From NCBI GenBank assembly GCA_964452555.1, contig CAYVMI010000019.1, forward strand, positions 6,288-70,287: a stretch of DNA of 64,000 bases. Reading direction: 5' to 3'. The notes beneath the pieces are model-generated. The model ran no database searches. It saw nothing but the letters and a program-made list of their open reading frames with translations, and had not been told where the DNA came from. This document shows, one piece after another, positions 42,737 through 51,605 of this stretch (position 1 is the stretch's first letter; the number at the start of each line of letters is the position of its first letter). The DNA is from an uncultured Desulfobacterales bacterium. GTDB lineage: Bacteria; Desulfobacterota; Desulfobacteria; Desulfobacterales; B30-G6. The translations under genes were made by a program, and so were the position numbers.

Positions 42737-43786
42737 TTATTTTGCCAGCATTTTATCGATAACGGCCCTGTTGGGCATTGAATTTTCATCATACAATTTC
42801 TCAAAACCAAAGCACTGCAATATTTTAAGGCCGGCGTCAATTTTTCTTACGCTTAATTCTGACTTCCATGAAGTGATAGGTGAAAAGCCCTTTATAATGC
42901 CGCTGTCGGGGTTGGTTACCCGGCTGGGCTGATTGATAATATCTTTACTCAGACGAACCGGGTGGCCTTTCACTTTGGTATGCGCGATAATACCGGACAC
43001 TTCATCATTTGGATTGGCGTATATTTTTTCGTAAAAGGCCACGTGTATTTGATTGGGGGAAAATTGCATGAGCGGCACATAATTTATAATCGACCAAATT
43101 AATATCTGACAGGTTATATAGTCAGCCTCCCGACTAGTTTTCTGAATAATATCATCAAACGGAGACAAGTAATCTTCGCAAAGTTTAGGCTGTTTAAGAA
43201 ATTCCGATGGATCGGTCATCCAAAACCAATTTTGCCGATTATATTTAGATAATGCCACAGAGAAAGGATTACGAATTAGTAAAATAATTTTTAAATCGGG
43301 GAAAAAACGTGACGCCCAGTATGAAAAGAGATTTGCGAAAATATCTTTTATCAGCAAACCGCTGAAAGTTAATGAGCGTACGGCCGGATCAACCGAAGGA
43401 TGTATAAATTTTCCGCAAAAAATCTCCTTGGCTGCGTTTTCCAATTTAGAATGCGAATCTTGCGGCCGCATGTAAAGATGCGGCTTCAAGAAGCTCATGC
43501 TGTCAACCGTCTTCGGGTGAAAGGGCTCAAACATCTCCCGGTAATTCTTTTTATGATTCAGCAAATTCGCCACCCAAGTCGTACCGCTTCTGCCATCACC
43601 GATTAACCATACCACCTCCTTGTAATTGTTAAGGAAATAATTCAGTTGAATTATTGTCCTGTAGAGATAAGCCTTTAATCTTTCTTTCATTCCGTGTCTG
43701 TGAGCCATTGCTTGTGTATGCGGCCACGTCCGGTTTGGTGGTTCGGATAAGTCGTCAGGTACAAACAAATTATGAAAGCCGCTCAA
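42737..43786 (-). CDS. Sulfotransferase family protein
   Basis: GDGRSGTTW 5'-phosphosulfate-binding loop and LLIRNPFSVALS 3'-phosphate-binding-type motif. The start is uncertain: TTG at 43786, with alternative ATGs at 43708 and 43690. Confidence 0.82.
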   Translation of the reverse strand: MSGFHNLFVPDDLSEPPNRTWPHTQAMAHRHGMKERLKAYLYRTIIQLNYFLNNYKEVVWLIGDGRSGTTWVANLLNHKKNYREMFEPFHPKTVDSMSFLKPHLYMRPQDSHSKLENAAKEIFCGKFIHPSVDPAVRSLTFSGLLIKDIFANLFSYWASRFFPDLKIILLIRNPFSVALSKYNRQNWFWMTDPSEFLKQPKLCEDYLSPFDDIIQKTSREADYITCQILIWSIINYVPLMQFSPNQIHVAFYEKIYANPNDEVSGIIAHTKVKGHPVRLSKDIINQPSRVTNPDSGIIKGFSPITSWKSELSVRKIDAGLKILQCFGFEKLYDENSMPNRAVIDKMLAK

Positions 43787-43860
43787 GCAAGATTCGCAAG
43801 TGGCGTCAAAAGCGTCCGATCAGGTAAACCCTTTGGCTGTGCCCATATTTCGTCATCATA

Positions 43861-43894
43861 AAAAACCCCGCGATTACTTTTGCGGGGTTTTTTC
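43861..43894. terminator. Bidirectional-looking rho-independent terminator downstream of the giant gene
   Basis: AAAAACCCCGC / GCGGGGTTTTT stem flanked by A and T runs on both sides. Confidence 0.7.
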
Positions 43895-44057
43895 TATTTA
43901 TGAGTATCGAAAGAATTTCGAATAAAAGTGACTAAAGACACGCTTATAATAAACAAGCTCTGAAGAATTTATCGTCGGGCCATACCTCAGCGAAACATGA
44001 ATTTTCGAACGCTTTTTTAAACCCAATTAATAATAATGAAATTAACGCAGCATTAAT

Positions 44058-47000
44058 CTATTCAAAAATAACGGATCGAATAAAGCAGTCTTCAACATCG
44101 TCCTCTGGATCATCGTCATCGTCACCTCCGCCGCCGCCACCGCCGCCAGTGTTCGTTACGACGGCCGCATGCACGCCGGAAAAATGGTATACCTTGAGCT
44201 GAATACCGGAGGCACTGTTCACTCGTGAGCCTGCCACCATCCATCCCGGCAGACCGGAACTCCCATCGGTGTCCGAAGCCAGAACCCACTCCCCATTGTA
44301 AATATAAATCTGTACGGTCGCGGCACTCACACCTTGGGTAGGAATAATCAGTTTTACCGGTGTACTGAATATGGCCGGCGGCTGCACATTGAGCAGATCA
44401 CCGAGTTCATTTACGTTGGCCGAGGGTAAAAAATCCGGAATGCCGTCTGTGGGCGCCAGGACCGGTATAATGGGTTCGGCGTCATTGTAGAGTACTTTGG
44501 CACCTTGCATAATCCCCGAATCAACCTGATACCCTGCATTGTAGGTATGGTCAGGATCGGTCAGATCCGGATCGGCAACATCCACGGTACTGTAATCGGG
44601 AATAGATGGATCCGTGGGCGCACTGTTGTGTTCTGCCTCGGTTTCAACACGGAAACGGTAATCCGCGGTGGCTATATGCCCATCGACATTGCTTACCGTG
44701 GCCGTAATTTCCACGGACGCGTCAAAGGGAAAGTCGCCATTGGTGTCCAAAGAACGGTCATATACAAACCAGAAAGCCGTCACAGCGGTGTCCGGATCGC
44801 TGGCATCCATCTTGATGATCCTCACAACGCTCGCGTCACCCAGATTGACCTCATAGGAAGTGTTGACCGTATCGTCCACTTCGAGAACCACACTGTTGTT
44901 GTCGGTTGTGTCGATACCGGCACTATTTGATATATAAACGCCAAAAGAAGCATTGCTGGGCACACGGAAGGCGTCATCGATGCCGGCCCGGTGATGGGGT
45001 ACGCTGTCCAGCAAATCAGGAGGTGACGGGAAGTCGGTGTCATCATCCGGATCGGTGTTGCTGATAAACTCCTCGTAGTTGGTATACCCATCCGAGTCAA
45101 AATCACCGGTTTTACCTTCGCCGGCAGATGTATTCGTGCTGGTGGCATCCAGTCCGTTTTCAGTCTCCCAGTCGTCCGGCAGATCGTCACCATCATTGTC
45201 ATTTATTTTCACCGTAGCAGGCTCCACATAATACCCGTCGGCGTCGGTGATGTCCTGAGTCAAGGTCAGGGTGTAGATGGTGTAGGCTGTCACGTCATCG
45301 TAGGACAGACGATAAGTACTGGTTTCACCAATGGAACTCTCCAGTTCGATGGAATTGCCAGGATTTGCAAAGTTCATGCTGGGCGTGATTAAATAATACG
45401 CTTCCCCTTCTGCATTCTGCATATTTAATTCGTCATAGGTAATCTCAATATAGTCAGCTGCGGCGTTTGCCACTGGATATTTGGTAGGATGCTGGGCATC
45501 AGGGTACACGATAATCGAGGGCGGATCCGCCTCGCCAGTGGTCGTCAGCCTTTCGATGGATGGGTTGACATCCGAGCCACTTGTTTCAAAGTTATTGCCA
45601 CTGGCGTCGGTGGAGCTTGCCCGCACATAATAAAGTGTGCTGGGCGACAGTCCGGTCAGCGTCACACTATGCTGCATTGTCAAGCCGCCGTCATTTTCAC
45701 TAAAAGGGTAATCCTGCCACACGGCACTGCCAGTCCCGTACCGGACCTGGCTGTTACCGGGTTCGTCCGTAATCCAGGTTACCAAAACGGTAGTGCCAGA
45801 TAAGGCCTGCACAGCCATATTGGAAATCTGGGGAGCACTCACATCGGGACCGTCGTCGGTGGTAAAATTAACTTCTGCTGAGGGCGTTGGTCCGTTCCCT
45901 TTGGCATCTGTCGAACCTACCATGAAATAATAGGGTGTGTCGGGCTGCAGGTTGGCTAAAGTCACGCTGTGGTTCAGAACCATATCAACATCGTTTTCGA
46001 AAATTGCGTAAGTGTTCCAGGTACCCGTAGACACATCGTAACGCACCTGGCTGTTGCCGGGTTCATCTGTGGTCCAGGTAATAAGGGCAGTGCTGTTGGT
46101 AACCCAGGCAACGGTCACATCTGTTATGACCGGAGCTGTGGTGTCCAAATCCACTGCCGTGGTAAAAGTGGATTCGCTGCTGGGGTTGGTGGCATCCTGG
46201 TTCAGTTCGGGGCCGTTTCCGGCGGCATCCGTTGAGCCCACGCGATAGTAATAAGCTGTAGAACCTGTCAAGCCGGTTAGCGTTACACTATGATGGGTTC
46301 TTAAAACAGCATCGTCCTCGCTGTCTGAATAGTTTGCCCAGGTGCTGACGGTTTCACCAAAACGAACGATACTGTTAGACGGTTCATCGGTTTGCCACTC
46401 GATGATGGCGGAGCCGGCATCCACGGCCGTTACGGATGGGCCTGCGATGATTCTCGGCGCTTCCTCATCTGCGGCCATGTCAGTAATGAAAGTTTCCTCG
46501 GCAAAGGGATTGTTGTTGTCAGTATCGGCGGGGTCAGGTCCATTACCGGCGGCATCCGTTGAGCCTACCATGAAATAAAAGGTGCATCCACCGGCATCAC
46601 AATCCTGAAACTGGCTCAAGCCGGTTATGGTAACACTATGGCTGGTCACCATATCACTGTCATTCTCGACATATCCATATGCAATCCAACCAAGAGATCC
46701 CTCATCATAGCGAACCTCACTGGTGCTGGGTTCATCCGTCTCCCATTCAATTGTGGCCGAATCGAGGGACTTATCAGTAACGGTGGGCGGAGTGGTAATC
46801 CGCGGCGCTTCCATATCCGGATCAGGATCTGTCCTGAAGGTGATTTCGGAAGATGAAGCAGGTCCATTGCCGGCGGCATCCGTACTGCCAACCCGTAAGT
46901 AATAGAGCGTATCGCCGCTTAGCCCCACCAGGGTAACTGTATGTGCCGTTACCAGCTCTCCATCGTTTTCGCTGAAATCGAAGCCGCCCCACTCTGCCGT

Positions 47001-49934
47001 ACTAGTACCGTATTGAACCTGGCTGTTACTTGGTTCATCCGTGAACCAGGCGATTACGGCGGAGTCATTGTCAACCGTCGTAACCGTGGGAGGGGCCGTA
47101 AATTGTGGTGGAATTACGTCCGGATCCGGATCGGTTGTGAAGCTGACCTCGGTGGAACTCGTGGGGCCATTACCGGATGCATCCGTTGAGCCGACTCTGA
47201 AGTAGTAGAGCGTATCGCCGTTGAGGTTGGTGAGGGTCACTGTGTGGTTGACTACCATATTGGCGTTGCTCTGGGCTTGCGTATAAGCGCCCCAGGCATT
47301 GCTGTCCGTGTCATACTGGACAACACTGTTGCTTTCTTCGTTGGTTGTCCACGCGATGGTGGCGGTTTCATTGGTTTTGATGGTCACCGTCGGGGGGCTG
47401 ATGATTTGCGGCGCCGTGGTATCGGGCGTTGCATTGGTGGTGAAGGAGAACTCTCCGGAGGTGGCCGGACCATTGTTGGCATTGTCCGTAGAACCGGCCC
47501 GGAAAAAGTACTCCGTATCGCCCGCAAGACCGGTCAAAGTGACGCTGTGGAAGGTCACCATGCCGGCGTCGTTTTCGCTATCCGGATAATCATTCCAGGC
47601 TTGACTACTGGTGCCGTATTTTACCTGGCTGTTGCTGGGCTCGTCCGTTTCCCAAACGATTATGGCCGAATTGTGGGTCTTGCCCGTGGCAGTGGGCGGA
47701 GATGTAAACTGCGGTTCGGTCACATCAGGATCCGGATCGGTGGTAAAACCTACCTCATTGGATGTTATGGGTCCGTTCTGTTCCACGTCCGTTGATCCCA
47801 CCCGGAGTGTATAAGTGGTGCTTCCTGTCAGGTTGGTAAGGGTAACACTGTGATCCGTCACCATGGCTCCGTCATTCGCACTGGAGTTGCCGGCACCATC
47901 CCATGTGAGGCTGCTTCCGGCAATGTACTGCACCAGGCTGTTGCTCGGTTCGTCCGTGGACCAGGTAATGGTGGCGGTGGCATTGCTGATGCCGGTAACA
48001 GTTGGCGGAACAGTGATGGTGGGCGGCGTCTGGTCTGCCAGGGTCGTGAAGTTCAATTCAGTATTGGTGGGGTTGTTGTCGCCCGTGAATGCCGGGTCCG
48101 GGCCATTGTTGAGCAGATCAGTAGAACCAACTCTGAAATAGTAGGTCTGCTGGTCGGTTAATCCGGTCAGAACCACGCTATGGTTGGTTACCATGGCGGG
48201 GTCGTTTCTATTGCCGGCATAGGTCGCCCACGTGCGGGAGGTTGTATCGTACCTTATTATACTGTTGGACGGTTCGTCCGTTGTCCAGGAGATTGTAGCT
48301 GTTGTGTCGGTGATACTTGTGACCGTGGGTGAAGAAATAATGGTCGGGGCGGTTGTGTCCGCCTGGGTTGTGAAGCTCAGAGCCGTATTGGTGGGATTGT
48401 TGTCTAGGCCGTAAGCCGGATCCGGGCCATTGTTGTAAGTATCGGTACTTCCGACTCGGAAATAATAGGTCTGGTTCTCAGTCAAGTTTGTAATCGTTAC
48501 ATTGTGAGAGGTAACCGATTCGGCCTTGTTTACCACTGTACTTAAATTGGCCCAGGTCTGAGATGAAGTATCGTAACGCACCTGGCTGTTGCTGTTCTCA
48601 TCTGTCTCCCATATAATTGTAGCGGTTGTATCCGTTACGCCGATGGCCGTGGGTGTGGTCGTAATTACCGGTGCCGTGGTATCTACTTCCGGTTCGGTTG
48701 TAAAGGTGTCATCCGGAGAATACCTGGGACCATTGCCGGCTTCGTCGGTTGAACCAACCCTGTAGTGGTAAAGCGTCTCTGGATCGAGCAGCGTTATCGT
48801 CACGCTATGATTAATGACATAGTCTTCCAGCGATCTCGAACGTGTGTAGGTCGTATCACCAAACTCGACAATGCTGTTAGCCGGTTCGTCGGTGGTCCAT
48901 TCAATTACCGCCGTGGTGTCGGTAATGGATGTCACCGTAGGCGCAGCGGTGATCACGGGCATGGTGGTATCGGCTGCCGGTTCGGTGGTAAAGGTAAAGT
49001 CGGCCGAACTCGTTGGACCGTTGTCGCTTGCATCCGTAGAGCTGACTCTGCAGTGATATGTGCTCTCGGGATCCAGTCCGGTTAATGTTACACTGTGAGA
49101 CACCACGTCCGTTCCATCGGTCTCGGTACTGCCATAGCTATCTGTCGGGCCGTAATCCACCACACTATCGGACAGCTCATCCGTAGTCCAGAATATAGTG
49201 GCTGTTGTGTCGGTGGCGTCGATGGCTGCCGGAACATTGGTGATCACGGGTGCGGTGGTGTCCGTCTGGCCGCCGGATAGTGTCGTGAAGGTAGCATCCA
49301 CTGATGGATTATAGTCCACTGCCGAGTTGTCCGGCCCGATCCCCTGTGAGTTGACGGAACTGACCCGGAAATGGTACTCGGTGGCAGGCGTCAGCCCGGA
49401 AATGGCGACCGTATGGCTGGTAAGATGATCCGTCGCGGGCGGCAATGGCGCCGTGCTGCCGTAACTCGCCGTGGTGCCGTATTCGACGATGCTCGTGCCG
49501 GGTTTATCCGTGGTCCAGGATATGGTCGCGTTCGTGTCCGTTAGCGAAACCAACGTTGGCGACGATGTGATCTGGGGTGCAGCCGTGTCCACTTCCAGTG
49601 AGTAATCGCTTTCAAAACCGTCAGCATTTACGGCCGTAACTGCAAAGAATAAGATCGGGACCGGATCGCTGAATGTTTTCTGGTAGGTATAGGTGTCTAA
49701 ACCGGGGCTGTGGGCAATCTGATCTGGGGTGCCGTCTCCATCCACCAGGTTGTCGAAAACACCCGGCGTTTCGCCCCAATACAAGCGGTAATGAACAATA
49801 TTTTCAATGGGATCATTGGCTTCCCATTGAAAGGTGTACGTCACAGCGAAACAGGGAATTGCCAATATGAAAAAGAAAGCCGCAAAAAAGACACCCGGCA
49901 ACAGACGATATATGAAAGGTCGTAATGATTTCAT
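44058..49934 (-). CDS. Giant secreted FN3-repeat protein (1958 aa)
   Basis: N-terminal signal-like segment, one FN3-like domain and 13 tandem repeats of about 100 aa. Also a D-x-D-x-DG Ca-binding-like region (DFDSDGYTNYEEF) and Ig-like C-terminal modules. The tail is GGGGGGGGDDDDDPEDDVEDCFIRSVIFE. Confidence 0.93.
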   Translation of the reverse strand: MKSLRPFIYRLLPGVFFAAFFFILAIPCFAVTYTFQWEANDPIENIVHYRLYWGETPGVFDNLVDGDGTPDQIAHSPGLDTYTYQKTFSDPVPILFFAVTAVNADGFESDYSLEVDTAAPQITSSPTLVSLTDTNATISWTTDKPGTSIVEYGTTASYGSTAPLPPATDHLTSHTVAISGLTPATEYHFRVSSVNSQGIGPDNSAVDYNPSVDATFTTLSGGQTDTTAPVITNVPAAIDATDTTATIFWTTDELSDSVVDYGPTDSYGSTETDGTDVVSHSVTLTGLDPESTYHCRVSSTDASDNGPTSSADFTFTTEPAADTTMPVITAAPTVTSITDTTAVIEWTTDEPANSIVEFGDTTYTRSRSLEDYVINHSVTITLLDPETLYHYRVGSTDEAGNGPRYSPDDTFTTEPEVDTTAPVITTTPTAIGVTDTTATIIWETDENSNSQVRYDTSSQTWANLSTVVNKAESVTSHNVTITNLTENQTYYFRVGSTDTYNNGPDPAYGLDNNPTNTALSFTTQADTTAPTIISSPTVTSITDTTATISWTTDEPSNSIIRYDTTSRTWATYAGNRNDPAMVTNHSVVLTGLTDQQTYYFRVGSTDLLNNGPDPAFTGDNNPTNTELNFTTLADQTPPTITVPPTVTGISNATATITWSTDEPSNSLVQYIAGSSLTWDGAGNSSANDGAMVTDHSVTLTNLTGSTTYTLRVGSTDVEQNGPITSNEVGFTTDPDPDVTEPQFTSPPTATGKTHNSAIIVWETDEPSNSQVKYGTSSQAWNDYPDSENDAGMVTFHSVTLTGLAGDTEYFFRAGSTDNANNGPATSGEFSFTTNATPDTTAPQIISPPTVTIKTNETATIAWTTNEESNSVVQYDTDSNAWGAYTQAQSNANMVVNHTVTLTNLNGDTLYYFRVGSTDASGNGPTSSTEVSFTTDPDPDVIPPQFTAPPTVTTVDNDSAVIAWFTDEPSNSQVQYGTSTAEWGGFDFSENDGELVTAHTVTLVGLSGDTLYYLRVGSTDAAGNGPASSSEITFRTDPDPDMEAPRITTPPTVTDKSLDSATIEWETDEPSTSEVRYDEGSLGWIAYGYVENDSDMVTSHSVTITGLSQFQDCDAGGCTFYFMVGSTDAAGNGPDPADTDNNNPFAEETFITDMAADEEAPRIIAGPSVTAVDAGSAIIEWQTDEPSNSIVRFGETVSTWANYSDSEDDAVLRTHHSVTLTGLTGSTAYYYRVGSTDAAGNGPELNQDATNPSSESTFTTAVDLDTTAPVITDVTVAWVTNSTALITWTTDEPGNSQVRYDVSTGTWNTYAIFENDVDMVLNHSVTLANLQPDTPYYFMVGSTDAKGNGPTPSAEVNFTTDDGPDVSAPQISNMAVQALSGTTVLVTWITDEPGNSQVRYGTGSAVWQDYPFSENDGGLTMQHSVTLTGLSPSTLYYVRASSTDASGNNFETSGSDVNPSIERLTTTGEADPPSIIVYPDAQHPTKYPVANAAADYIEITYDELNMQNAEGEAYYLITPSMNFANPGNSIELESSIGETSTYRLSYDDVTAYTIYTLTLTQDITDADGYYVEPATVKINDNDGDDLPDDWETENGLDATSTNTSAGEGKTGDFDSDGYTNYEEFISNTDPDDDTDFPSPPDLLDSVPHHRAGIDDAFRVPSNASFGVYISNSAGIDTTDNNSVVLEVDDTVNTSYEVNLGDASVVRIIKMDASDPDTAVTAFWFVYDRSLDTNGDFPFDASVEITATVSNVDGHIATADYRFRVETEAEHNSAPTDPSIPDYSTVDVADPDLTDPDHTYNAGYQVDSGIMQGAKVLYNDAEPIIPVLAPTDGIPDFLPSANVNELGDLLNVQPPAIFSTPVKLIIPTQGVSAATVQIYIYNGEWVLASDTDGSSGLPGWMVAGSRVNSASGIQLKVYHFSGVHAAVVTNTGGGGGGGGDDDDDPEDDVEDCFIRSVIFE
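45528..49589 (-). repeat. Coding tandem array of 13 FN3 / purple-acid-phosphatase-N-like units (96-116 aa each)
   Basis: Each unit matches D-T-T-A-P-x-I...T-x-T-x-A-x-I-x-W-x-T-D-E-P-S-N-S...H-S-V-T-L-T-G-L...Y-Y-F-R-V-G-S-T-D...G-N-G-P...F-T-T. I parsed residues 116-1469 by hand. Confidence 0.85.
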
Positions 49935-50134: not shown

Positions 50135-50163
50135 ATTTTATGTCCTATACGCTTTGAAGTCAA
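50135..50163 (-). promoter_or_regulatory. Strong candidate sigma70-type promoter for the giant gene
   Basis: On the minus strand: TTGACT (50163-50158), 17 nt, TAAAAT (50140-50135). This implies a leader of roughly 195 nt. Confidence 0.6.
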
Positions 50164-50479: not shown

Positions 50480-51304
50480 TTATTCAGTTAGTCTGAAGTC
50501 GGATGGCGGACTGGGAGGTGGACTTCCCCCGTTGGAACCAAGGTCAGGATCTTCTTCGGAAAGCGTCCAATTGTCATAATATTGGTATCCGTCCTGAAGA
50601 CTGCTGTTGCGCGTATAGCTAGAGAGCAAATATTTTCCAAACCCGAATGAAGTATTTTCGCGAATATTCAGGTTTGTCTGATCGATTTTAAGCTCATCAT
50701 TGATCCACATTTTTATCACACCGTCCGCAAGGTTGGGTGTGTTGAGCCTGCAATATAGTTTTATTTTATCCCAACTTCCCGGGGTAATATATGCAGGTTG
50801 CCCGACATGTTGTCGAATACCGAAAAATCTCCATGAACCGATATATGAATACTGTACCCGGTATTCTGCCTGATCTGCATCGGAAAACTTCCGTGCCTGA
50901 ACCATAACTTGGTAACGTCTTGTACTAACAATGCCATCTGTAAGATTCAAAAGCATTACCTTAACATTGTCGCTCGGCCAGGTAACATAGTTGGCGGAAA
51001 ACTTGACATGGCCCGACCACCAAATCTCTTCTAACTTTGTCCCGCCAATTGAATAATAATCACCGATTTTGTGTTCTTGATAATTGTCATTCAACGTACC
51101 GGTAAGGTGCGTGGCCCGCGCATGATACGACCCCTGGAACGGGGTTCCCTCGGTGGTGATAACAAGACCGGTTTCTGCGCGTCGGCTTCCGTCCCAATCG
51201 CTCCAACTGGCATCCTCAAAATCCTCGAAAAGTATGGGTTCAGAGTATGCGCTCAGCGGTATCATTGCCAAAATTATTATGTATAACACGATTGATTTAT
51301 TCAT
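50480..51304 (-). CDS. Secreted concanavalin-A-like (lectin/glucanase-fold) protein, possible polysaccharide lyase
   Basis: Signal peptide MNKSIVLYIIILAMIPLSAYS from the ATG at 51304, preferred to 51433. Beta-rich sequence with a GVIKMWINDE motif resembling polysaccharide-lyase (heparin-lyase-I-like) families. Pro/Ser-rich tail. Confidence 0.6.
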   Translation of the reverse strand: MNKSIVLYIIILAMIPLSAYSEPILFEDFEDASWSDWDGSRRAETGLVITTEGTPFQGSYHARATHLTGTLNDNYQEHKIGDYYSIGGTKLEEIWWSGHVKFSANYVTWPSDNVKVMLLNLTDGIVSTRRYQVMVQARKFSDADQAEYRVQYSYIGSWRFFGIRQHVGQPAYITPGSWDKIKLYCRLNTPNLADGVIKMWINDELKIDQTNLNIRENTSFGFGKYLLSSYTRNSSLQDGYQYYDNWTLSEEDPDLGSNGGSPPPSPPSDFRLTE

Positions 51305-51605
51305 ATCTATTTCATTTCTTTTTAAAAAAGGTTTGATCGTCTTTTCGAACGCGTCGGCTTCTCCGGCGCAGGAAGGTTCGGTTCCGGAACAGGGAAATTC
51401 CCCGCTTTTTATGGCGCCTGCACGCGCTAACACCCTTGAATGACGGCCTTGATCCGTCCTCTAAATACCAAATGGGCAGCAACGACAGCCCCTATAAATA
51501 TCAAATGATTGCTTAAAGGGCAAGTCCGGGATGGTGAAACCCTATGCCGAAGCAGCGGGTAATATCACATCCGCAGGTCGTGACACCAATTATTAACTGA
51601 AATAT

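Follow-up and report, generated by a model that had tools for sequence, protein, structure and literature searches.

The analysis of a 64,000-nucleotide stretch of DNA (the window) from the draft genome of an uncultured Desulfobacterales bacterium, a relative of sulfate reducers, revealed a gene for a giant secreted protein whose last nine residues, CFIRSVIFE, are very probably a short form of the CFI-box, a motif found at the extreme C-terminus of unrelated exported proteins. The gene is an uninterrupted open reading frame (ORF) of 1958 codons followed by a TAG stop, located at 44058-49934 on the minus strand, as are all the segments of the protein described below. The initial annotation of the window, made from the sequence alone, had placed a 1958-residue gene at these positions, to which the strand is now added. 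The explanation favoured here is that the tail is a minimal, helix-less signal centred on an invariant Cys, by which the exported protein would be retained at the cell surface. As a whole, this explanation is given a probability of about 55%.

The protein ends in ...TNT-G8-D5-PEDDVED-CFIRSVIFE, immediately before the TAG codon, and Cys1950 is the ninth residue from the end. The flexible tether G8-D5-PEDDVED (residues 1930-1949, 44088..44147) was read from the translation, and its coding DNA carries CCG and TCATCG micro-repeats. The tail itself (residues 1950-1958, 44061..44087) was delimited by its HMM match and by the alignment of homologs. A run of Gly and Asp with an acidic stretch, a Cys nine residues from the end and the lack of a hydrophobic helix or basic tail had all been described in the initial annotation, and the translation agrees: no transmembrane (TM) helix or basic residues were found in it after the CFI motif. 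Cys1950 is invariant in 19 of 19 aligned homologs, and the acidic insert is conserved across the ortholog group as P-[ED]-[ED]-V-x-x-C.

The short tails share the common form [Gly/Asp-rich tether]-C-F-[ILVM]-x-[TSA]-[LIVM]-x(1-3)-stop. In a logo of 55 such tails, Cys is present in all 55, Phe occupies position +1 in 52 and Ile position +2 in 42, with V, M, L or F in the rest. Position +3 is polar, +4 is Thr, Ala or Ser (36/55) and +5 is Leu, Ile, Val or Met (45/55), after which one to three unconstrained residues precede the stop. Six to eight residues follow the Cys in 41 of the 55 tails and fewer than six in none; five residues follow it in three tails from two larger homolog sets collected afterwards, and this is the smallest number seen. 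This accumulation of lengths at the minimum is expected if selection acts on the core and the positions beyond about +5 or +6 can be dispensed with.

The eukaryotic CaaX box likewise places aliphatic residues after an invariant Cys close to a free C-terminus and needs no TM segment. A comparable pathway would prenylate the Cys in the cytoplasm, followed by proteolysis and carboxyl-methylation, and an ICMT/PEMT-like gene (a weak Pfam match) lies about 7 kb from one ortholog. This pathway is nevertheless hardly credible for the CFI tails. CaaX processing needs the Cys at exactly the fourth position from the end, with three residues after it, whereas the Cys is ninth here and never nearer than sixth in any tail, so that at least five, and nearly always at least six, residues follow it. 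Furthermore, the clients carry Sec signal peptides and are exported, not cytosolic, and the long forms of the motif put the Cys on the outer side of a TM helix.

The motif is recurrent, almost exclusively C-terminal and conserved in orthologs. A six-frame scan of the 5.9-Mb draft genome containing the window found 17 ORFs (16 besides the giant-protein gene) that end in a Gly/Asp/Glu-rich tether, C-[FY]-[ILVMF] and 6-18 further residues, including the tails CFIGILK, CFVESLR, CFLETLK, CFIQSLMQ, CFINLLGFK and CYINILQLI. The 2.66 million ORF residues contain the tether-plus-C[FY]h motif 18 times. For 16 of these 18 occurrences a stop is no more than 12 residues away, where chance would give about one. 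A signal-peptide-like start is present in all 10 of the CFI-tailed ORFs with an intact N-terminus. The carriers are unrelated and typically large proteins: a GEGP diheme cytochrome, a delta-60-repeat protein, a C25/PorU-like peptidase and PKD-like repeat proteins. In several of these paralogs the last folded domain before the tail is the NCBIfam choice-of-anchor U domain (NF041766).

The search was extended to 61 related genomes, all of them metagenome-assembled genomes of uncultured Desulfobacterales or of organisms labelled 'delta proteobacterium'. The DNA pattern (G/D/E)x4-C-[FY]-h matched 159 times and its reversed control 42 times; the 159 matches were spread over 46 of the 61 genomes, and the counts are noisy. 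The reading of 60 pattern sites added 25 short tails, 18 of them in the window genome's own family, along with two TM forms. The initial annotation had proposed looking in the genome and its relatives for other proteins ending in poly-Gly/poly-Asp and CFI-like tails; with 17 in the genome and conservation in orthologs, the tail is neither unique to the giant protein nor missing from its orthologs.

The 17 tails of the genome use all three stop codons (TAA in nine, TAG in four and TGA in four), indicating that recoding is not involved. A conditional membrane anchor could in principle arise by read-through of the TAG codon through a pyrrolysine system, which would add INAALISLLLIGFKK... with its hydrophobic residues and Lys-Lys pair. 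The genome does contain a tRNA-Pyl(CUA) adjoining pylS, pylC and pylD, the in-frame sequence past the TAG reads INAALISLLLIGFKKAFENS..., and several same-genus orthologs also end in TAG. Read-through was rejected, and is given almost no chance, because all eight orthologs and homologs inspected lack a hydrophobic or basic extension past the stop and because TAG is not enriched, ending 4 of 17 tails compared with 26% of long ORFs genome-wide. Moreover, with its 13 residues the hydrophobic run could not reach across a membrane, and AT-rich spacers often translate into peptides rich in I, L, F and K. The peptide encoded in frame past the TAG (window 44013-44057, minus strand), which resembles a short hydrophobic anchor with a basic pair, was judged to be a chance feature of such a spacer.

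The pyrrolysine cluster is complete and is located on contig C46 (C46:43068-48463). Its tRNA-Pyl(CUA) (C46:46712-46785, complement) is accompanied by genes matching the PylS C-terminal domain (312 bits), PylC (398 bits) and PylD (220 bits), as well as by genes for a methylamine-type corrinoid protein and a methyltransferase. A tRNA-Sec is found on contig C47 (C47:34-131). Judging from these genes, UAG is probably read as Pyl, and UGA as Sec, in this Desulfobacterales genome.

Among the NCBIfam models, only NF041763 (sort_motif_CFI) matched the tails. In this 14-position model the Cys occupies position 8, the last position lies six residues past it, and the cut-off is 15.9 bits. The CFIRSVIFE tail scores below it, with 11.4 bits in isolation and 11.9 bits in a six-frame genome search, because the acidic PEDDVED insert sits between the Gly run and the Cys. 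A paralog tail on contig C67 (…SDSGCFIQSLMQ) passes the cut-off with 16.3 bits. HMM searches of six-frame genomes are insensitive with so short a model and recovered 5 of the 17 tails.

By all sequence criteria other than the curated score, the tail of the giant protein belongs to the NF041763 class. Its G8-D5-PEDDVED-CFI ending corresponds to the core of the class, a low-complexity tether followed by Cys-Phe-[Ile/Val/Leu/Met]. The Gly-rich tether, the invariant Cys and the Phe-Ile pair with about four further residues stand at the extreme C-terminus of proteins with signal peptides, many unrelated ones per genome, as seen in the 17 ORFs. The difference lies in the D5-PEDDVED segment between the Gly run and the Cys, and in the lower score. 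No NCBIfam model for PEP-CTERM, LPXTG, GlyGly-CTERM or MYXO-CTERM was matched by the whole protein at E<=1 or by the tail at E<=10.

The long form of the motif is described by NF041770 (CFI-box-CTERM), a helical domain of 69 positions that starts at the Cys (CFIATAAYGS...FRD...YY.YSPP...) and is called at 40 bits or more. A TM helix and a basic cluster usually come after it. The giant protein stops eight residues past the Cys and has neither the helical domain nor the TM helix and basic cluster. Both forms stand after the same cassette and a Gly tether and begin with C-F-I-x-T-hydrophobic, and truncation intermediates link them. The tail had been proposed in the initial annotation to be a novel sorting, processing or lipidation motif. 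A recurrent C-terminal motif it is, but not a new one, since it is already catalogued as NF041763, the 'CFI-box putative sorting motif', a truncated form of NF041770. NF041763 is itself listed as 'putative' only, and the literature searched contained no paper with 'CFI-box' or 'CFIATAAYG'.

The clearest view of the relationship between the forms comes from the domain that precedes the tail. Residues 1470-1928 (44151..45527) form a conserved C-terminal cassette, delimited by homolog alignment, structural model and profile search, and ending in ...GWMV.GSRVN...KVYHFSG. A profile search with this cassette gave 153 representatives at E<=1e-30 and 50% identity, the best 150 of which were sorted by a rough regular expression. 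About 44-47 of these 150 have short tails, about 30 have CFI followed by a TM helix and at most 34 have a full or long CFI-box (at least two of which look misfiled by the regular expression), the rest being truncated or unclear. In none of the 150 does PEP-CTERM or another named sorting signal follow the cassette.

The first kind of ending comprises short tails such as CFIRAIFNF, CFVTTAFAH, CFINMLFF, CFIQLIK, CFIGLVK and CFMRLLAE. In the second, found on FN3 giants and subtilases, C-F-I-x-[ST]-A and about 10 residues lead into a TM helix and a basic cluster, as in CFITAASHGPLIKHVLFYAVLNLILIVLGTYGIKKIIKK. The third is the full CFI-box-CTERM, CFIATAAYGS…FRD…YSPP…, with its TM helix and basic cluster, and is found on homologs L103 and L105 with 99 and 96 bits on NF041770 (cut-off 40). 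Orthologs from the same genus end either in short tails (CFIQLIK, CFIGLVK and CFMRLLAE) or in CFI plus a TM helix. An unrelated family, the GEGP diheme cytochrome, follows a similar pattern, with about 95 short tails, about 22 CFI-plus-TM endings and one full domain among 120 homologs. The short, TM and full-domain endings are thus positional equivalents on one domain.

In a side observation on the TM form, the loci L043 (G009:C1:8681-9150) and L049 (G004:C17:540007-540476) carry GGGG-CFIETTRS…, a TM helix and RFVRHR, and then continue in the same frame, with no stop, into an apparent second signal peptide (MLMLVTAILLGASLFVSNSYA/AEG) and further sequence. Either a larger protein contains the CFI box internally, or two genes have been joined in the same reading frame.

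Intermediate truncations also occur among the cassette homologs, where CFIATAAE, CFIATAASD, CFINTAAYGSPVEP and CFIDTAAYGLVWPKM are each followed by a stop. These intermediates, and the presence of both forms within one genus, would fit a decayed remnant, in which nonsense mutations had cut off a CFI-box-CTERM or TM anchor, leaving a released protein and a functionless CFIxxxx. Such decay is quite improbable in view of the retention of C-F-I-x-[TSA]-[LIVM] in 55 independent short tails and in about 95 cytochrome homologs. Almost no tail has fewer than six residues after the Cys (three have five), 17 clients occur in one genome without any long form, and the motif is nearly missing at internal positions. 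The conservation of the tail, its minimum length, the 17 clients and the C-terminal placement together point to purifying selection on the tail itself.

The distribution of the long form is consistent with a lineage that works with short tails. NF041770 is absent from the window genome and from all but one of the 15 genomes in its family, and among the 61 genomes it is found above cut-off in 14, of which 13 belong to other families of the order. By these matches, the organism's own lineage uses almost only the short form.

The orthologs would differ radically in localisation if each ending had its own fate, and the most economical view is that the three precursors share one route of handling, which goes through their common tether-Cys-Phe-Ile core. 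Because this core alone is constant across the endings, a Cys-centred sorting or processing tag that works without a membrane helix is the most likely function of the tail, although the odds that it is so are close to even. The following sequence of events is proposed. The protein would be exported by the Sec pathway as a strongly acidic envelope or matrix protein in which thirteen FN3-type repeats form a long stalk. At its end, the disordered Gly8-Asp5-acidic tether joins the C-terminal cassette to the nine-residue tail, a minimal CFI-box signal with the core [tether]-C-F-[ILVM]-x-[TSA]-[LIVM]. After export, a putative extracytoplasmic factor would recognise the tether-CFI core. Its target would be the invariant Cys, which would most likely be covalently modified or serve for attachment, whether or not the few residues behind it are cut off. 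The outcome would be retention on the envelope or outer-membrane surface, whatever follows the core being dispensable. The mature protein would be a stalk that stays on the surface or in the matrix, in association with the sulfated or acylated polysaccharide of the locus.

Comparison with established systems shows how far this proposal departs from them. The CFI-box resembles PEP-CTERM/exosortase, LPXTG/sortase, GlyGly-CTERM/rhombosortase and MYXO-CTERM/myxosortase in being a C-terminal tag with many clients, attached through low-complexity linkers to surface proteins with signal peptides. MYXO-CTERM also has an invariant Cys. In addition, 'choice-of-anchor' domains precede the CFI tag, and its mid-length forms consist of a motif, a TM helix and a basic cluster, as in the tripartite signals. 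The short form differs in having no TM helix or basic cluster and so cannot be a substrate, in the usual way, of an intramembrane or membrane-face enzyme. It is conceivable, though on balance doubtful, that the short CFI-box is the first prokaryotic C-terminal sorting signal without a membrane span. A putative enzyme or envelope machinery would then read a free tag about the size of a heptapeptide, tether-C-F-I-x-T-L-x, and lipidate or trans-link the Cys, so that the short, TM and full precursors would all give the same anchored product.

Several points weigh against a processed sorting tag. To our knowledge, every characterised prokaryotic C-terminal sorting signal contains a TM helix, and this tail has none. 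The tail also falls under the curated NF041763 cut-off, and the literature searched yields no experimental support for the processing of CFI-box proteins. Furthermore, the search for a processing enzyme was negative: no neighbour gene recurs, and the sole CFI-tailed peptidase candidate occurs in just 4 of 61 relatives. An all-against-all BLAST of the ORFs lying up to 8 kb from the 17 CFI genes detected no family at more than two loci and none that resembled a candidate enzyme. The neighbourhoods of three diheme-cytochrome homologs have only a conserved porin gene in common. The co-occurring sortase-like enzyme suggested in the initial annotation was therefore not found, either by the comparison of neighbours or by the distribution of the peptidase candidate in the 61 relatives.

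The peptidase candidate is a 659-residue secreted protein (C21:72464-74449) with weak similarity to PorU, a T9SS sortase of the C25 family, and with a CFI tail of its own, CFVESLR. This C25/PorU-like peptidase was discarded as the processing enzyme, since it is found in only 4 of 61 related genomes while the tails are present in most of them. The genome also encodes five or six small proteins with canonical PEP-CTERM ends (VPEPATMLLLGTGL…RKK.FKK) on contigs C4, C25, C39, C68 and C69, showing that an exosortase system coexists and serves a different set of proteins. The CFI-tailed proteins are a separate set from these, and were rejected as exosortase clients. A third candidate, autoprocessing of the intein/Hedgehog type at G|C-F with the tail as a short split-HINT N-fragment, is considered unlikely, the register C-h-h-x-T-h being unlike intein block A and the long form being helical.

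The failure to detect a dedicated enzyme or linked gene would be expected of an enzyme-free mode of action. In such a mode, the tail Cys would form an intermolecular disulfide or a thiol link (to a metal or polysulfide) with a partner or with itself, F-I-x-x-L would serve as a hydrophobic docking peptide, and the tail would be a self-sufficient tethering or oligomerisation tag. Of the only four Cys in the mature protein, that of the tail alone lies on a disordered segment, and the hydrophobic positions +1, +2 and +5 are arranged like one face of a short helix. We regard this mode as unlikely, because it leaves unexplained both the near-invariant Phe-Ile straight after the Cys and the exchange, between orthologs, of a short tail for CFI plus a TM helix and basic cluster or for a 69-residue helical domain plus TM helix. 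In addition, the tripartite long forms resemble classical enzyme-processed sorting signals. The Cys-centred, factor-dependent tag is the preferred reading.

The cassette that carries the tail was modelled with AlphaFold2 (residues 1470-1958, from a 19-sequence alignment). The C-terminal module has a mean pLDDT of 81 and forms a chain of beta-sandwiches with a Ca-loop segment: a first beta-sandwich, the Ca-loop segment and then Ig-like beta-sandwiches. The last 30 residues, comprising the tether and tail, have a pLDDT below 50 and are modelled as disordered. The Ca-binding segment is thrombospondin-type-3-like (residues ~1578-1622, NDNDGDDLPDDWE...GDFDSDGYTNYEE, 45069..45203, from alignment and model) and overlaps a match to Amuc_1099_fam over residues 1584-1638. 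It follows the pattern N-D-x-D-x-D...G-D-x-D-x-D-G-x-x-N-x-x-E, in which the N, D, G and E columns are invariant in 19 homologs. These invariant columns and the beta-sandwich model bear out the Ca-binding-like D-x-D-x-DG segment and Ig-like modules recognised in the initial annotation. A Foldseek search of the PDB with the C-terminal model returned only generic Ig, Fab and CopC-like sandwich matches and no specific fold, so that no specific ligand can be inferred for the cassette. In the homologs of residues 1470-1958 (families P0144-P0290), the cassette, with its end …GWMVPGSRVNHN…IE[IV].VYHFSG, is almost always followed by some CFI box wherever the homolog is complete. It may therefore be a dedicated adaptor of the CFI system rather than a free-standing 'choice-of-anchor' domain.

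Upstream of the cassette, residues 118-1469 (45528..49583) are made up of thirteen tandem, diverged repeats of the FN3/Pur_ac_phosph_N type. Thirteen W-x-T-[DN]-[EK] anchors define the units, from residue 118 to ~1469, with periods of 96-116 residues and pairwise identities of 33-62%. The array matches Pfam PF16656 (Pur_ac_phosph_N; 368.5 bits over 12 stretches) and PF00041 (fn3; 170.1 bits over 10 stretches), both above the gathering score. Tandem Repeats Finder detected no repeat of the 96-116-residue period at the DNA level. The thirteen diverged units recognised by the initial annotation are recovered by the anchors, and its unique two-Cys insertion proved to be confined to repeat 10 (QFQDCDAGGC, residues 1108-1117, 46584..46613). 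The Cys1112/Cys1117 pair may form a local disulfide. The repeats strongly resemble the N-terminal FN3-like part of purple acid phosphatase, but the catalytic domain of that enzyme was not detected: no metallophosphatase catalytic family is among the Pfam matches of the protein at E<=0.1, which argues for a structural repeat array and not a phosphatase.

At the N-terminus, residues 1-30 (MKSLRPFIYRLLPGVFFAAFFFILAIPCFA / VTY, 49845..49934) look like a signal peptide of the Sec/signal-peptidase-I type, read from the translation as a basic n-region, a hydrophobic core and CFA-V. The following residues 31-117 (49584..49844) may form the further FN3-like domain of the initial annotation, with the motif TFQWEAN...HYRLYWG. 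By BLAST this putative domain resembles the repeats, and the N-terminal ends of two paralogs, no more than weakly; two CFI-tailed paralogs of the giant protein carry a comparable motif. The product is Thr-rich and strongly acidic, with 282 Asp and Glu against 52 Lys and Arg.

The gene lies within a co-directional polysaccharide-biosynthesis cluster that occupies ~42.7-64 kb of the window (42737-64000) on the minus strand. Its immediate neighbours, assigned by Pfam, are a Sulfotransfer_1/3 gene downstream (42737-43786) and a Polysacc_lyase_14-like gene upstream (50480-51433), in agreement with the sulfotransferase and lyase-like gene named in the initial annotation. The cluster includes genes for an epimerase, three GT2 glycosyltransferases, two FemAB-like acetyltransferases (Acetyltransf_6), a methyltransferase, an LMW-PTP, a GDSL esterase, a DUF218 protein, a DegT aminotransferase, a GT8 enzyme, the PL14-like protein, the giant protein, the sulfotransferase and a UDP-glucose dehydrogenase (UDPG-DH). 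This gene set suggests an exopolymer that would be acylated and sulfated.

The polysaccharide context is kept in two orthologous loci. One is syntenic, with GT2 and acetyltransferase genes upstream and UDPG-DH, flavodoxin-SCP2 and arginase genes downstream, and the same sensor kinases; the other adjoins Wza/Wzz-type export genes and DUF218. A role as matrix scaffold or adhesin for the polymer would be compatible with this conserved placement.

With regard to transcription, a sigma-70-like promoter match (TTGACT-17-TAAAAT, 50135..50163, minus strand) lies ~200 nt upstream of the ATG, and a bidirectional terminator-like hairpin (43860..43893) with a 14-bp stem flanked by A and T runs lies ~165 nt past the stop. 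Both are consensus matches only, and sigma-70-like matches are no more numerous here than in shuffled sequence. The presence of a promoter-like site upstream and a strong hairpin downstream suggests that the giant-protein gene could be a separate transcription unit.

Another CFI-tailed protein of the genome deserves mention. The GEGP diheme cytochrome (NF041762, 448 bits) carries a choice-of-anchor U domain and the tail CFIGILK, and a gene for a Porin_O_P-type porin is located directly upstream (the pair occupying C8:56516-58261 and C8:58519-59844). Porin-cytochrome pairs with a gap of 10-21 nt are found in three distant metagenomic genomes. On the strength of this gene order, the pair may be a trans-outer-membrane electron-transfer module.

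The giant protein and its tail add an example to the catalogued class of putative CFI-box sorting motifs. What the analysis adds is the series of three forms on one cassette, the minimal-length rule, a lineage that has almost exclusively short tails, and the exclusion of several mechanisms. Since the tail scores under the curated HMM cut-off, proteins of this sort are probably not flagged in genome annotation. Any mechanism is constrained by a functional core that consists only of tether-Cys-Phe-Ile-x-[TSA]-[LIVM], with at least five and nearly always at least six residues after the Cys. It must also accommodate a TM helix and a helical domain that are dispensable and interchange between close orthologs, and a whole bacterial family that uses almost only the short form. 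This family, with its many short-tail clients and almost no CFI-box-CTERM domains, and with both short and TM forms in one genus, would lend itself to a search for the putative enzyme by phylogenetic profiling. CFI-box endings are present on many exported proteins of anaerobic bacteria, and the carriers here are stalk-like adhesins, proteases and a diheme cytochrome, linked to a porin, with a possible role in extracellular electron transfer.

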